DNA from: an uncultured cyanobacterium
Lineage (GTDB): Bacteria > Cyanobacteriota > Cyanobacteriia > Leptolyngbyales > Leptolyngbyaceae
Assembly: GCA_963766075.1 (NCBI GenBank)
Contig: CAVYAN010000031.1
Span: 37,048-101,047 of the forward strand
DNA: 64,000 bases
Direction of reading: 5' to 3'
In this document: one piece after another, positions 390-62,794 of the stretch
How the letters are laid out: each line of letters begins with the position of its first letter
Numbering within the stretch: position 1 is the first letter of the stretch
Made by a program: the position numbers and the translations under genes
The notes under the pieces: model-generated
Told to the model about the DNA's origin: nothing
The model's input: the letters and a program-made list of their open reading frames with translations, nothing else
The model's database searches: none

Positions 390-616
390 TTAAGGTGAGT
401 GCGCTTAGGTTTAGTACTCGCCCAGACGCCCAAAGACCTCGGTCTTAAAACGCGATCGCCCAGTGCGTGGAACCACCAAGCGATCGCTAACCCCCAAGCT
501 GAGTCAGCAGCATGGCGGCTTGTTCTATTTTACAAGCCACCCTGTTTTGCAACGCATTCGGGGTGGCTGCGGTTTTTGGGTCTTCTTCCCCCACAAAAAA
601 CACAAGGAGACCCATC
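390..616 (+). ncRNA. Putative structured leader / cis-regulatory RNA (left copy)
   Basis: Hairpins at 394-422, 433-446, 452-487, alternative 514-541 vs 535-568, and SD-sequestering 577-614; stems are preserved in the right copy. Confidence 0.55.
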
Positions 617-934
617 ATGACCACTCAACCGCCGAGTGATAGAAACGATCGCCCGTCCACTCTCAACGATTCAGGCTCACGCGATCCAGAACAGCGCACG
701 GTCAATGGCGATCGCGGCTCACCCGAAGTCCGCGACTTCATTACCGACCTCACCACCCTCGGCAACGAATGGGTCAACATCACCCTCACCGGCTCCCGCC
801 CCGCCGTCCGGGCCATGGTCAACCTCCTGCACCAAGTCAACGTGATTGGGGCCAGTGAATGGAGCAAGGCCATTGCCATCAAATCTACCCCAGTAATCAT
901 CCGCGTTGCCTCTCGGGGCATGCGTACAGAATAA
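617..934 (+). CDS. Small hypothetical protein (105 aa), paralog of 61669-61896
   Basis: AAGGAG SD before ATG 617; core WVNITLTGSRPAVRAMVNLLHQVNVIGASEWS...IRVASRG is shared with the right copy. Confidence 0.75.
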   Translation: MTTQPPSDRNDRPSTLNDSGSRDPEQRTVNGDRGSPEVRDFITDLTTLGNEWVNITLTGSRPAVRAMVNLLHQVNVIGASEWSKAIAIKSTPVIIRVASRGMRTE

Positions 935-26947: not shown

Positions 26948-29188
26948 ATGACAACTACCCCAAAGGCGAAGGTCGTTGTCGATAAAGATCCGGTTCCTAC
27001 TTCTTTTGAGAAGTGGGCTCAGCCGGGTCACTTCGACCGCACCCTCGCTAAAGGTCCCAAAACCACCACCTGGATTTGGAACCTGCACGCGAACGCCCAT
27101 GATTTCGATAGCCATACAAGCGACTTAGAAGACGTATCTCGGAAAATATTCAGCGCACACTTCGGCCATCTTGCCGTTGTGTTCGTCTGGTTGAGCGGCA
27201 TGTATTTCCATGGCGCAAAATTTTCAAATTATGAAGCCTGGTTGGCGAACCCGACTGCCATTAAGCCTAGTGCGCAGGTCGTTTGGCCAATTGTGGGTCA
27301 AGAAATTTTGAATGCAGATGTTGGCGGTGGCTTCCACGGGATCCAGATTACTTCTGGCTTCTTTTACCTGTGGCGTGCCGCTGGCTTCACCAATGGTTTT
27401 CAGCTTTACTGCACCGCAATTGGCGCCCTCGTCATGGCGGCATTGATGCTGTTTGCTGGCTGGTTTCACTACCACAAGGCAGCGCCAAAGTTGGAGTGGT
27501 TCCAGAATGTTGAATCGATGATGAATCACCACCTGTCCGTGCTGCTGGGATGCGGCTCGCTGGGTTGGGCGGGTCACCAGATTCACGTATCGCTGCCCAT
27601 CAATGAGCTCCTCGACAAAGGAGTTGCGGCCAAGGATATTCCGCTGCCTCACGAGTTCATCCTGAACTCGAACTTGATGGCAGATATTTACCCCAGCTTT
27701 GCTAAGGGCTTGACTCCTTTCTTTACGCTGAACTGGGCTGAGTATTCAGACTTCCTCACCTTTAAGGGTGGGCTAAATCCAGTCACAGGCGGGCTATGGT
27801 TGACCGATACGGTCCACCACCACTTGGCGATCGCCGTCCTGTTCATCATTGCGGGCCACATGTACCGCACGAACTGGGGCATCGGTCACAGCATGAAGGA
27901 AATTCTGGAAGCGCACAAGGGACCCTTTACGGGTGAAGGTCATAAGGGACTCTACGAAGTTCTGACGACTTCCTGGCACGCACAATTGGCTATCAACCTG
28001 GCAATGGTTGGCTCCTTGAGCATCATCGTTGCCCAGCACATGTACGCCATGCCTCCCTACCCCTACATGGCCACGGACTACGCCACGCAGATTTCGCTGT
28101 TCACCCACCACATGTGGCTCGGCGGCTTCTTCATCGTTGGCGGTGCGGCTCACGGGGCGATCTTTATGGTTCGGGACTACGATCCCGTCGTGAACCAGAA
28201 CAATCTGCTGGATCGCATGCTCCGTCATCGCGATGCCATCATTTCTCACCTCAACTGGGTCTGTATTTTCCTGGGCTTCCATAGCTTTGGTCTGTACATT
28301 CACAACGACACGATGCAAGCGCTGGGTCGTCCCCAAGACATGTTCTCGGATGATGCCATTCAGTTGCAGCCCATCTTTGCCCAGTGGGTGCAGCACCTGC
28401 ACACCTTGGCTCCTGGGACGACTGCGCCCAATGCTTTGGGTGCCGCCAGTGTTGCTTTCGGTGGCGACACCGTAGCGGTAGCTGGAAAGGTTGCCATGAT
28501 GCCCATTGAATTGGGTACGGCGGACTTCCTAGTTCACCACATCCACGCCTTCACGATCCACGTCACCGTGTTGATCCTGTTGAAGGGCGTTCTGTTTGCT
28601 CGTAGTTCTCGCCTGATTCCCGACAAGGCGAATCTGGGCTTCCGCTTCCCCTGCGACGGTCCGGGTCGTGGTGGTACCTGCCAGGTTTCTGGTTGGGACC
28701 ATGTCTTCCTGGGTCTGTTCTGGATGTACAACTCCCTCTCCATCGTGATTTTCCACTTCAGTTGGAAGATGCAATCCGATGTTTGGGGCACGGTCAACCC
28801 CGACGGCTCTGTGGCTCACATTACGGGCGGCAACTTCGCCCAGAGCGCTATCACCATTAATGGTTGGTTGCGTGACTTCCTGTGGGCGCAGGCGACTCAA
28901 GTGATCACCTCCTATGGTTCTGCGCTGTCGGCTTACGGCTTGCTGTTCCTGGGCGCACACTTCGTCTGGGCATTCAGCCTGATGTTCTTGTTCAGTGGTC
29001 GCGGCTACTGGCAGGAATTGATTGAATCCATTGTTTGGGCACACAACAAGCTGAAAGTAGCTCCTGCCATTCAACCTCGTGCTCTGAGTATTATTCAGGG
29101 TCGGGCTGTAGGTGTAGCGCACTATCTCTTGGGAGGAATTGTCACTACGTGGGCATTCTTCCTGGCTCGCACACTGTCACTGGGATAA
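26948..29188 (+). CDS. psaA: Photosystem I P700 apoprotein A1
   Basis: [10 protein letters not shown] and [12 protein letters not shown] motifs; GAGGAG RBS. Confidence 0.99.
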
Positions 29189-29206
29189 GCGAGGAACATA
29201 AACACT

Positions 29207-31436
29207 ATGGCAACTAAATTTCCTAAATTTAGCCAAGACCTCGCTCAAGATCCAACCACCCGGCGGATCTGGTACGGGATTGCAACGGCTCACGACTTTG
29301 AAAGCCACGACGGCATGACCGAGGAAAATCTTTACCAAAAGATTTTTGCCTCTCACTTTGGTCACATCGCCATCATCTTTCTGTGGGCATCGGGCAGCCT
29401 GTTCCACGTAGCTTGGCAAGGCAACTTTGAAAAGTGGATCACCGATCCGCTACACATCAAACCCATCGCCCACGCGATTTGGGATCCTCAATTTGGCAAG
29501 GATGCTGTTGATGCGTTTACCCAAGGTGGCGCATCCTACCCCGTAGACATTGCGTACTCTGGTGTTTATCACTGGTGGTACACGATTGGGATGCGGTCGA
29601 ATGCAGAACTATACGCAAGGCTCGATCTTTTTGCTCCTATTCGCGGCAGTCATGCTGTTTGCGGGTTGGTTGCACCTTCAGCCCAAGTTTCGTCCCTCTC
29701 TCGCCTGGTTTAAGAATGCTGAATCCCGCCTGAACCACCACCTGGCTGGTTTGTTTGGGGTTAGCTCCTTGGCTTGGACGGGACACTTGGTGCACGTCGC
29801 CATTCCCGAGTCTCGCGGTCAGCATGTGGGTTGGGATAACTTCCTGTCCACCCTGCCTCACCCTGCTGGGCTGGCTCCGTTCTTTACAGGCAACTGGGCC
29901 GTTTATGCGGAAAACCCAGATACGGCAGAGCACCTGTTTGGCACGGCAACCGGCTCTGGAACAGCGATTCTGACTTTCTTGGGTGGTTTCCATCCTCAGA
30001 CTGAGTCTTTGTGGCTGACGGACATGGCGCATCACCATTTGGCGATCGCAGTCCTGTTCATCGTTGCGGGTCACATGTATAAGACCAATTTTGGAATTGG
30101 TCACAGCATGAAAGAGATTATGGATGCCCATAATCCGCCCAAGGGCACGCCCTTTGGTGGCATGATCGGTGACGGCCACAAGGGGATGTACGACACCTAC
30201 AACAACTCCTTGCACTTCCAACTGGGTTGGCACTTGGCTTGTCTCGGTGTGGTGACCTCGGTGGTGGCGCAGCACATGTACGCCATGCCTCCCTATGCGT
30301 TCATCGCGAAGGACTTCACCACAACGGCTGCTCTGTATACCCATCACCAGTACATTGCTGGGTTCTTGATGGTCGGCGCGTTTGCCCACGGCGCTATCTT
30401 CTTAGTGCGGGATTACGATCCGGATCAAAACAAGAACAATGTGTTGGCTCGGATGCTTGAGCATAAGGAAGCCCTGATCTCTCACCTGAGCTGGGTCTCC
30501 TTGTTCCTGGGTTTCCACACCCTGGGTCTGTACGTTCACAATGATGTGGTCGTTGCCTTCGGTACCCCCGAAAAGCAAATCTTGGTTGAGCCCGTTTTTG
30601 CCCAGTGGGTACAGGCGGCTTCCGGCAAGATGATCTACGGCTTCAACTCCTTGTTGTCGAACCCCGATAGCATTGCGTACACCGCTTACCCCAACTACGG
30701 CAACGTTTGGTTGCCCGGTTGGTTGGATGCGATGAACAGTGGCAAGAACTCGTTGTTCCTGACCATTGGCCCTGGCGACTTCTTGGTGCACCATGCGATC
30801 GCTCTAGGTCTGCACACCACCACCTTGATCTTGGTCAAGGGTGCGTTGGATGCCCGCGGTTCCAAGCTAATGCCCGACAAGAAGGACTTCGGTTATGCTT
30901 TCCCTTGCGACGGCCCCGGTCGTGGCGGTACCTGCGACATCTCGGCTTGGGATGCGTTCTACCTGTCCATGTTCTGGATGCTGAACACCATTGGTTGGGT
31001 TACCTTCTACTGGCACTGGAAGCATCTGGCAATCTGGTCTGGAAACGTGGCCCAGTTCAATGAAAGCTCGACCTACTTGATGGGTTGGCTGCGTGACTAC
31101 CTGTGGCAGTACTCCGGTCCATTAATCAACGGGTACAACCCCTATGGCATGAATAACTTGGCCGTCTGGGCATGGATGTTCCTCTTTGGACACCTGATCT
31201 GGGCTACCGGTTTCATGTTCCTGATTTCTTGGAGAGGGTACTGGCAAGAACTGATCGAAACCCTGGTTTGGGCACACGAGCGGACACCTTTGGCGAACCT
31301 AGTTCGCTGGAAGGACAAGCCCGTGGCTCTGTCCATCGTGCAAGCACGTGTGGTTGGTCTGGCTCACTTCACTGCGGGCTACATCATTACCTACGCGGCC
31401 TTCTTGATTGGGTCTACGGCAGGCAAGTTCGGTTAA
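29207..31436 (+). CDS. psaB: Photosystem I P700 apoprotein A2 (apparent +1 frameshift near 29615)
   Basis: [20 protein letters not shown] start; [13 protein letters not shown] in the second ORF; one extra base in TAC-G-CAA-GGC. Confidence 0.97.
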
Positions 31437-61373: not shown

Positions 61374-61426
61374 TGCTCCCTTCGACTCCGCTCAGGGAGC
61401 AATCTTCCGCTAGCTGAGCGGAGTCG
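61374..61426. repeat. REP-like repeats
   Basis: TGCTCCCTTCGACTCCGCTCAGGGAGCA and CTGAGCGGAGTCG. Confidence 0.7.
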
Positions 61427-61668: not shown

Positions 61669-61896
61669 TCACCGATGGTCGGACGCCGATCCGCGTATGC
61701 CCCGTGAGGCGACGCGAATCACAATTGGGGAGTTGCGCAGGGGGACAATGGGACTCCATTCGCTGGCGGCGATGACGTTGAGGCGATGGAGCAGGTGGAT
61801 CATGGCTTCGACGGCGGGGGCTTGGCCGCTGAGGGTGATGTTGATCCAGTCGGAACTGTGGGCCGCTGGGTCGCGGCTCGGCGGGGTCATATTCAT
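61669..61896 (-). CDS. Small hypothetical protein (75 aa), paralog of 617-934
   Basis: AAGGAG SD; DWINITLSGQAPAVEAMIHLLHRLNVIAASEWS...IRVASRG. Confidence 0.75.
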   Translation of the reverse strand: MNMTPPSRDPAAHSSDWINITLSGQAPAVEAMIHLLHRLNVIAASEWSPIVPLRNSPIVIRVASRGIRGSASDHR

Positions 61897-62121
61897 GGTT
61901 GGGTCTCCTTATGTTTTTTGTGGGGAAGAAGACCCAAAAACCGCAGCCACCCCGAATGCGTTGCAAAACAGGGTGGCTTGTAAAATGAAACAAGCCGCCA
62001 TGCTGGACAGTCAGCGTGGGGGTTAGCGATCGCTTGGTGTTACAGCACTGGGCGATCGCGTTTTAAGACCGAGGTCTTTGGGCGTCTGGGTGAGTGCTAA
62101 ACCTAAGCGCACTCACCTTAA
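61897..62121 (-). ncRNA. Putative structured leader RNA (right copy)
   Basis: Near-identical to 390-616; differences fall in loops or linkers or swap G-C/A-U for G-U pairs. Confidence 0.55.
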
Positions 62122-62220
62122 CGCAAGAGAATACCGAATTGCGCCGCACTTTGCAAGTCCTATTTTGAGTAAATTTGGGGTGGACAGGCATTCCTGCGAG
62201 GTGCCATCCACCGATGGCTC

Positions 62221-62374
62221 GAGATCAAGTTTTGGGAACCCGTATTCAATTTTCGAGAACTCGTATTCAATTTTCGAGAACTCGTATTCAAGTTTGGTCA
62301 ACCCGAAATTAAGTTTTGGGAACCTGAGATCAAGTTTTGGGAACCTGAATCAAATTTTGGCAACTCAAAATCAA
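62221..62374 (-). repeat. 21-bp tandem repeat array, 7 units
   Basis: Units start at 62229, 62250, 62271, 62292, 62313, 62334 (20 nt) and 62354. Confidence 0.9.
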
Positions 62375-62400
62375 GTTGTATCTAGAGCCTACGCCTGGAT

Positions 62401-62647: not shown

Positions 62648-62794
62648 TTTCGGCATAACACCCCGTATAGAGGTAGATATGCCGAAATAATTCTGCATAA
62701 TGTTCTGCAGGGGGCAGTTATGCCGAAAATTTCTATATAACTCCCTAGCTGGAGGTAGATATGCAGAAAGATTCTTTATAAAGAATAGTTAGAC
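62648..62794 (+). other. Putative attI-like recombination region
   Basis: 41-bp-periodic TTCKGCATA/TATGCMGAA inverted pairs ending in GTTAGAC (GTTRRRY) at 62788-62794, on the 5' side of the intI remnant. Confidence 0.6.

Follow-up and report, generated by a model that had tools for sequence, protein, structure and literature searches.

The locus and its surroundings

The window, the whole stretch of 64,000 nucleotides from an uncultured cyanobacterium of the Leptolyngbyaceae, holds two copies of a module made of a putative promoter, a leader of about 230 nt and a small open reading frame (ORF). In the left copy, on the plus strand, the ORF (617..934) encodes a protein of 105 amino acids with a predicted soluble beta-alpha-beta core and without a known family. 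The second copy lies on the minus strand towards the other end, with its promoter and leader at 61897-62156 and an ORF of 75 amino acids at 61669..61896. The first-pass annotation had described this pair and both copies proved real, but the genome holds 18 leader copies by BLAST, not two. The ORF is intact in 14 of the 18 and broken in 4. Most copies have unrelated housekeeping genes on either side, from a scan of 96 of the 137 ORFs next to them.

The 3′ end of an integron-type tyrosine recombinase gene (Phage_integrase, E 1.9e-6) precedes both copies in the window, at 34-162 on the plus strand and about 62518-62401 on the minus strand. Such an end stands before 6 of the 18 genome copies, and the gene is full-length (321 aa) only at G000:C41 (L173:4204-5166). 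An attC-like inverted repeat at 62648-62727 (GGCATAAC ... GTTATGCC) adjoins a low-GC ORF at the window end, near the integrase fragment; repeat and fragment together are possibly decayed integrons. Tandem 21-bp repeats (205-285 and 62220-62379), their number varying from locus to locus, lie between integrase fragment and module promoter. A DUF6883 gene is found near three copies, and the tRNA-Leu(CAA) gene at 1299-1380 on the minus strand, 365 bp downstream of the left copy, is the only tRNA gene near any of the 18. The window also carries REP-like palindromic dispersed repeats (1103-1145, 2394-2424 and 61374-61404) and a pair of direct repeats (27797-30544), each the size of a gene, that have diverged and are separated by about 2.2 kb.

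Structure of the leader

The sequence at 355-383 on the plus strand resembles a sigma70-type promoter (-35 TTGCAA at 355-360, a 17-nt spacer, -10 TATTCT at 378-383) that would start a leader of about 228 nt, with the start predicted at 389-390. The pattern TTG-N3-N16..18-TAnnnT occurs 5′ of the leader’s P2 hairpin in 26 of 32 genomes, against 1.9 under the null, while the consensus promoter scan did not list the site.

The segment 390-620 folds at -87.2 kcal/mol (z = -5.0), and none of 200 shuffled sequences was equally stable. All of the elements that follow are on the plus strand. The 5′ hairpin, P1 (394-422, with 394-402 paired to 414-422), is Watson-Crick throughout in the right copy (about 62121-61897, minus strand) and has two G-U pairs in the left one, just as the first-pass annotation had it. 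Positions 428-444 form the 5′ strand of a long-range helix, P0, whose partner in read-through RNA (565-581) comprises the terminator base, the U-run and the start of the anti-Shine-Dalgarno (anti-SD) strand. Then come the P2 hairpin (452-487, hypervariable loop 466-473), a C-rich linker (488-495) whose partner in the antiterminated fold is the 3′ arm of the terminator (560-567), and the P3 hairpin (494-515, hypervariable loop 502-507). The arms of P2 are HIP1 sequences here and different sequences in homologs.

Two hairpins, an antiterminator at 514-541 (-13.1 kcal/mol) and a terminator-like hairpin at 535-568, overlap at 535-541, in agreement with the earlier claim that they share a strand. 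The second (-19.8 kcal/mol for 533-570) is followed, directly after GCGG, by the U-run that had been noted (573-577), so that the whole element spans 535-577. In this copy 4 nt separate the U-run from the stem, and 535-568 was not called by the terminator scan. Finally, the anti-SD strand (577-587) pairs with the SD (604-614) in a hairpin at 577-614 of -13.8 kcal/mol, with covariation in helices 5-6 of the covariance model, and the SD is thus hidden as had been proposed. The hairpins in the first-pass list are real; what it lacked were the pairings 428-444/565-581 and 491-495/560-563 and the unit on the opposite strand described below.

Distribution and covariation

A profile of the ORF found matches in 12 of 61 related genomes, G041 having 39 of them and G049 having 10, and the regions 5′ of the fetched matches carry the same leader; 43 upstream regions were aligned, and 2 were dropped where the leader was wholly or partly missing. 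A covariance model built from 58 leaders of four genomes, scoring at most 16 candidates per genome, matched the leader in 43 of 151 cyanobacterial genomes of the class. Among 70 distant leaders an ORF was called in 64, and 57 of these were retained as the same protein family after 7 unrelated, broken or spurious ORFs had been excluded. A pattern scan of genomes gave 105 stretches, nearly all from filamentous cyanobacteria. A family ORF lies downstream in 60 of the 80 with fetched flanks, and several others are cut by contig ends. As the scan pattern included ANNNTA, its matches were excluded as evidence for the antisense -10 box.

In an alignment of 29 distant leaders, one per genome, 29 of the 34 pairs of the model vary on both sides, and the covariation score was 0.473 against 0.175 for shuffled and at most 0.10 for slid controls, the alignment having been fitted to the covariance model. 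The covariation that the first-pass annotation had asked for is therefore present among the homologs. These results support a conserved structured leader with alternative terminator and antiterminator hairpins and a hidden SD.

The leader also appears to be new, as proposed. At the gathering score Rfam matched only the tRNA-Leu in the whole window, and at E up to 1 it matched nothing but a tRNA at 12 loci, with no match to RF01695 (C4 antisense RNA). We found no published description of the leader or the ORF family, and subscription papers and supplements may hold one. The family is not described in the accessible text of PMC2864571, PMC2887945, PMC12873609 or PMC4734099. The third of these reports a CMfinder screen of 202 genomes over the flanks of 931 KEGG ortholog groups, and its supplement or database may include part of the family. 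Motif searches of the accessible part of the Nostoc PCC 7120 sRNA table gave no matching entry, and a search for related loci gave no confirmed relative.

Four leaders stand before ORFs unrelated to the family (L104:1752-2387, L112:1137-1481, L118:1684-2322 and L164:652-990), one of them HTH-like, which indicates that the RNA switch is portable. One leader match (E 9e-10, L188:574-691) comes from a metagenome-assembled genome labelled Caldilineaceae and reflects contamination or transfer. Two pattern matches in IMG/VR were weak and on the opposite strand, and were taken as chance.

An antisense RNA predicted on the opposite strand

Three features of the leader, namely a -10 pattern, a strand bias in folding and a run of A before P2, point to a transcript from the minus strand. 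The predicted cis-antisense RNA of about 75 nt (445..520, minus strand) would begin with AGCC near 520, form two hairpins and end with the P2 hairpin and UUUU, the complement of A447-450. It folds at -40.4 kcal/mol. P1 lies outside it. In the second copy its counterpart would be at about 61993-62066 on the plus strand.

The putative -10 box is TAAAAT (527..532, read from 532 to 527 on the minus strand), in the loop of the antiterminator and with no -35 consensus. Its spacing places the antisense +1 at the A opposite T520. A TGn extension is present in 17 of 33 homologs and absent from this copy. For this and the other strand analyses we used 33 leaders, one per genome. In 29 of the 33, a minus-strand TAnnnT occurs at a distance of 5-9 nt from one fixed anchor, against 3.5 +/- 1.7 (maximum 9) in shuffled sequences and 5 in the plus-strand control. 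This count is biased upward by the model used to find the homologs, which carries the consensus ATTTTA, and related genomes are non-independent. The hexamer occurs as TAAAAT, TAAACT, TACCAT, TATAAT, TATGAT and TAGAAT, and the model’s bias leaves this combination of a varying middle and constant ends unexplained.

The span 445-520 is more stable as antisense than as sense RNA in all 33 genomes (z against its own shuffles -4.6 and -2.4, respectively). Taken separately, P2 folds better as antisense in 33 of 33 and P3 in 31 of 33, while the terminator folds better as sense in 29 of 33. Mismatches in the stems agree: read on the sense strand, P2 and P3 together have 46 C.A against 3 G.U, and the terminator stem has 36 G.U against 3 C.A. 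The suggestion that wobble pairs reveal selection for structure on the sense strand thus holds for the terminator and is reversed for the two central hairpins. P1 (19 against 14 of 33) and the SD region show no strand bias, nor do YUNR motifs (9 against 9 and 4 against 4 of 18).

A run of at least three A lies 5′ of P2 in 29 of the 33 genomes, which suggests that minus-strand transcripts would terminate intrinsically at P2; this copy has a 14-pair stem there, followed by UUUU. The promoter scan listed no minus-strand promoter, which counts against the antisense promoter. Among sequence reads, two RNA runs from two studies contain a piece of a homologous leader over 442-492, carrying no strand or end information, and the others are contigs of relatives; none shows a sense or antisense transcript, its strand or its ends. 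On balance it is very probable that the antisense RNA exists and has a regulatory role.

How the switch may work

The helices that would make up the switch were compared with permuted pairings. For the antiterminator the cognate value (-9.9 against -8.5 +/- 0.34) lay beyond all 300 permutations. For the linker (491-495) with the terminator 3′ arm it was -10.1 against -9.4 +/- 0.24 (equalled in 4 of 5000), several arms having been parsed too short. The clearest case was P0, with a cognate duplex of -20.9 kcal/mol against -14.0 +/- 0.7 (0 of 5000; 32 of 33 genomes). At least five T follow the terminator stem within 8 nt in 29 of 33 genomes.

The predicted antisense RNA covers the 5′ strands of the antiterminator and linker helices and, in many homologs, part of P0. 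As expected of an attenuator, the computed balance between terminator and antiterminator depends on this span. The gap between the ON and OFF folds in this copy is 0.7 kcal/mol and becomes 10.1 when 445-520 is blocked; across genomes the mean rises from 3.7 to 8.9, with the change seen in 29 of 33. At equilibrium the terminator arm is still paired downstream when the antisense RNA is left out (0.78 against 0.91), the antiterminator exceeds 0.5 in 2 of 33 genomes, and the ON fold comes within 3 kcal of OFF in only 15 of 33. As equilibrium favours the terminator, the ON state must be kinetic or near-degenerate.

For a nascent RNA with its 3′ end anywhere from 582 to 610, P0 is the minimum-free-energy fold; in longer RNA the SD hairpin is preferred by 3.5 kcal/mol. 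Since P0 runs past the U-run, most of it can form only after read-through. It frees the SD only in part (0.31 unpaired here; a mean of 0.17 against 0.14 over 24 leaders), and in folding the SD stayed paired when only the antiterminator was imposed.

These results suggest the following sequence of events. In a nascent leader left to itself, the hairpin 514-541 would hide the terminator 5′ arm and the linker 491-495 could take the 3′ arm, while P0 would take the terminator base and the U-run and compete with the anti-SD strand. The -10 promoter within the leader would give the short antisense RNA, from about 520 to about 445 and with two stable hairpins, whose loops would make kissing contacts with those of P3 and P2 in the nascent transcript. 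Its 5′ end, AGCC, which has the same letters as the terminator 5′ arm, would take the antiterminator strand. The terminator would then form, and the SD would remain paired in any read-through RNA. As the antisense RNA covers two strands required for antitermination, its binding should bring about termination, with the SD still locked. An attenuator controlled by an antisense RNA and preceding a small gene is the reading we lean towards, with modest confidence. The copies, the helices and their covariation, the strand asymmetry, the -10 pattern, the divergence of the loops and the purifying selection on the ORF are computed results; the two transcripts with their ends, the kissing contacts and the termination are inferred. 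The earlier suggestions of an attenuator and of a type I toxin-like leader both fit it; the antisense trigger had not been proposed.

Hypervariable loops

Close paralogs within this genome differ from one another at 42-49% of P2 and P3 loop positions, whereas the figures are 12-19% for four-fold sites of the ORF and 4-9% for the rest of the leader. Every loop pair is unique, in all 18 copies here and in all 33 that could be parsed (of 34) in G041. In silico, complementary hairpin loops would set the specificity, as in antisense attenuators, and non-cognate loop duplexes came within 1 kcal/mol of the cognate in 2 and 7 of 306 cases. Identical P2 loops accompany unrelated P3 loops (by eye), and pairing between the P2 and P3 loops in cis was rejected.

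A frozen scaffold with fast-changing loops is the pattern expected of recognition sites selected for non-interference, and the reverse of that expected of an aptamer. The loops may therefore be a specificity code, such that each copy would obey only its own antisense RNA and new copies would be selected for new loops.

The small protein

The core of the ORF is under strong purifying selection (pN/pS 0.00-0.03). The protein family had no match in Pfam, PHROGs, NCBIfam or PDB sequences, and the ESM Atlas returned only unnamed cyanobacterial clusters (0.80-0.82); a suspected likeness to DUF3970 did not hold up. The AlphaFold model has a strand-helix-strand core predicted with confidence (mean pLDDT 84). 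No structure in the fold searches matched it clearly (best E 0.16 in PDB and 0.073 in BFVD; Z 4.2, MinE 4.1 in a wide search), and this absence shows neither a new fold nor a function. No member of the family has a predicted transmembrane helix: the maximum 19-residue hydropathy is 0.8 and 1.06, and none of 57 family members exceeds 1.6. Modelling supports a homodimer formed through the first strand (score 0.51, best control 0.02). Of 30 solved pairs 20 attain the mark for a dimer, as does 1 of 23 single chains, and the runs agree in at least 78% of contacts with pLDDT of at least 67.

Our first guess, a little short of an even bet, is a growth inhibitor through which the module becomes addictive; a regulator of mobile elements is a somewhat less probable second. 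The former agrees with the layered repression and the unique loops, the latter with the plasmid contexts of relatives. Nostocales plasmids carry leaderless relatives of the ORF, one of them facing an annotated HTH gene and others near integrases or a replication gene. At L028-L031 leaderless family ORFs occupy, by eye, the place of a cro gene, with an XRE-like gene diverging from them. In two further places on Nostocales plasmids (L167:7131-7175 and L296:1187-1273) a family ORF or its surroundings carry a single P2-like hairpin, with loops TTGGCG or CGCCAA, and lack the rest of the leader; we take these hairpins to resemble C4-type target hairpins.

More speculatively, and we think this rather improbable as a whole, the modules could be selfish chromosomal addiction modules found throughout the class, in which a new family of soluble toxins is silenced by antisense-driven attenuation and selection for divergence in two RNA loops has produced, in single genomes, from 18 to more than 30 natural attenuators orthogonal to one another.

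Alternative explanations

We slightly prefer termination as the main action of the antisense RNA. The strongest competing view, which we think distinctly less probable, keeps the same RNA and moves its effect after transcription: by pairing with the full leader it would block P0, leave the SD hidden and mark the mRNA for RNase III, and 535-568 would be a weak terminator or a structural element only. Every antisense signature (the -10 box, the wobble bias, the loops) fits this, and P0, the strongest covarying helix of the switch, extends beyond the U-run and overlaps the anti-SD strand. The layout of aapA/IsoA also matches, being multicopy with two kissing loops and cognate specificity, as far as PMC5416894 describes it. 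However, the antisense RNA would stop about 85 nt before the SD, whereas IsoA1 is described there as masking the ribosome-binding site; the GC stem and U-run are retained in 29 of 33 genomes; and the computed release of the SD by P0 is small.

It is unlikely that the modules are the decayed heads of mobile elements (satellite-, plasmid- or integron-borne), with the antisense RNA providing immunity or incompatibility and the chromosomal copies as leftovers. The plasmid-borne relatives with integrase genes, a rep gene or a divergent HTH gene close by, the leaders 5′ of unrelated ORFs, one HTH-like, and the integron-integrase ends before 6 of 18 copies would all fit such an origin. Against it, the ORF cores are under strong purifying selection with 14 of 18 intact, and most copies stand alone among housekeeping genes. 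Searches gave no phage match for one family protein, no PHROG family and no plasmid match by blastn for three leaders.

A ligand riboswitch, one of the options of the first-pass annotation, or an autoregulatory leader bound by protein, either acting without an antisense RNA and with ATTTTA as an RNA loop motif, is less likely still. A terminator/antiterminator pair and a hidden SD are typical expression platforms, and the ORF product, predicted to dimerise, could bind RNA. The loops, though, are hypervariable where a riboswitch would have conserved unpaired ligand nucleotides, Rfam gave no aptamer match even at E up to 1, the variation of the hexamer follows TAnnnT on the opposite strand, and the wobbles of P2 and P3 favour that strand; we rejected membership of a riboswitch class. 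A dispersed DNA repeat or MITE whose HIP1 palindromes merely resemble RNA structure could account for 18-39 copies per genome and for a P2 made of HIP1 octamers, but is very improbable given that P2 pairing is kept with non-HIP1 sequences in other genomes, that the wobble bias is strand-specific, that promoter and ORF are conserved and that the alignments show no terminal inverted repeats (by eye).

The leader is real, structured and widespread, and it is most likely under the control of a cis-antisense RNA of loop-coded specificity.

Comparison with known systems

Most of the antisense attenuators known so far control plasmid copy number. PMC3753616, in the text available, calls the dearth of natural examples a roadblock for RNA circuits and reports an engineered 7 x 7 orthogonal set. 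If our model is true, one cyanobacterial genome holds 18 natural loop variants and another more than 30. It would also add to cyanobacteria a large, possibly toxic family of small proteins under antisense control, where PMC12390103 (2025), in its accessible part, calls its own candidate the first cyanobacterial type I system, and it would show cleanly how selection diversifies RNA recognition loops beside a frozen protein.

The closest mechanistic parallel is pT181 RNAI/repC, in which, according to the accessible text of PMC3753616, a short cis-antisense RNA acts through kissing hairpin loops, its binding forces a terminator to form, and specificity comes from the loop and upper stem. The module described here differs in being chromosomal and cyanobacterial, with up to dozens of copies and distinct loops per genome. 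The pIP501 RNAIII/RNAII pair is an antisense transcription attenuator of the pT181 type. In both, a plasmid Rep is controlled, while here the downstream ORF of 75-105 aa belongs to no Rep or other family and its copies lie among chromosomal genes; we found no sequence or Rfam similarity to either.

In organisation the module is closer to Helicobacter aapA/IsoA, which PMC5416894, in the part available, describes as multicopy and chromosomal; there, an antisense RNA of much the same length faces the 5′ UTR and makes two loop-loop contacts with it, specificity is cognate, and the SD is sequestered. Here, by contrast, the predicted antisense RNA stops short of the SD, with a terminator and antiterminator between. 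The protein is also different: 62-105 aa, soluble and beta-alpha-beta, against a 30-aa membrane peptide for aapA. Low hydropathy and the beta-alpha-beta model set it apart from type I membrane peptides, although soluble exceptions, SymE and RalR, are listed in the accessible text of PMC12390103.

Two cyanobacterial systems are related in part. Synechocystis pSYSA asRNA1/ssr7036/CyRepA1 also has a stem-loop antisense RNA at a small-protein gene, but from what PMC9978351 gives, asRNA1 is about 150 nt long, has its start 304 nt away from that of the sense RNA, pairs with the coding portion and belongs to a single plasmid locus 5′ of a Rep gene. Microcystis msoT1/msoA1 is likewise a proposed type I pair; compared by description only, in the accessible part of PMC12390103, MsoT1 has two predicted transmembrane helices where the family here has none. 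The P1/P7 C4 antisense RNA and the c4-a1b1 target motif, the latter without an Rfam accession, appear in the accessible lists of PMC2864571.

As to C4 itself, in P1/P7 it gives loop-coded antisense immunity over small mobile-element genes and is processed from the sense operon. The RNA predicted here would have its own promoter on the opposite strand, and the leader does not match RF01695, while its P2 loops, we assume, resemble target loops of the c4-a1b1 type. The module thus works like pT181 and is organised like aapA/IsoA, and it belongs to neither, having no Rep gene and no membrane peptide. Loop-barcoded antisense control is a design known from plasmids and toxin-antitoxin pairs, here proposed for a family for which it had apparently gone undescribed.
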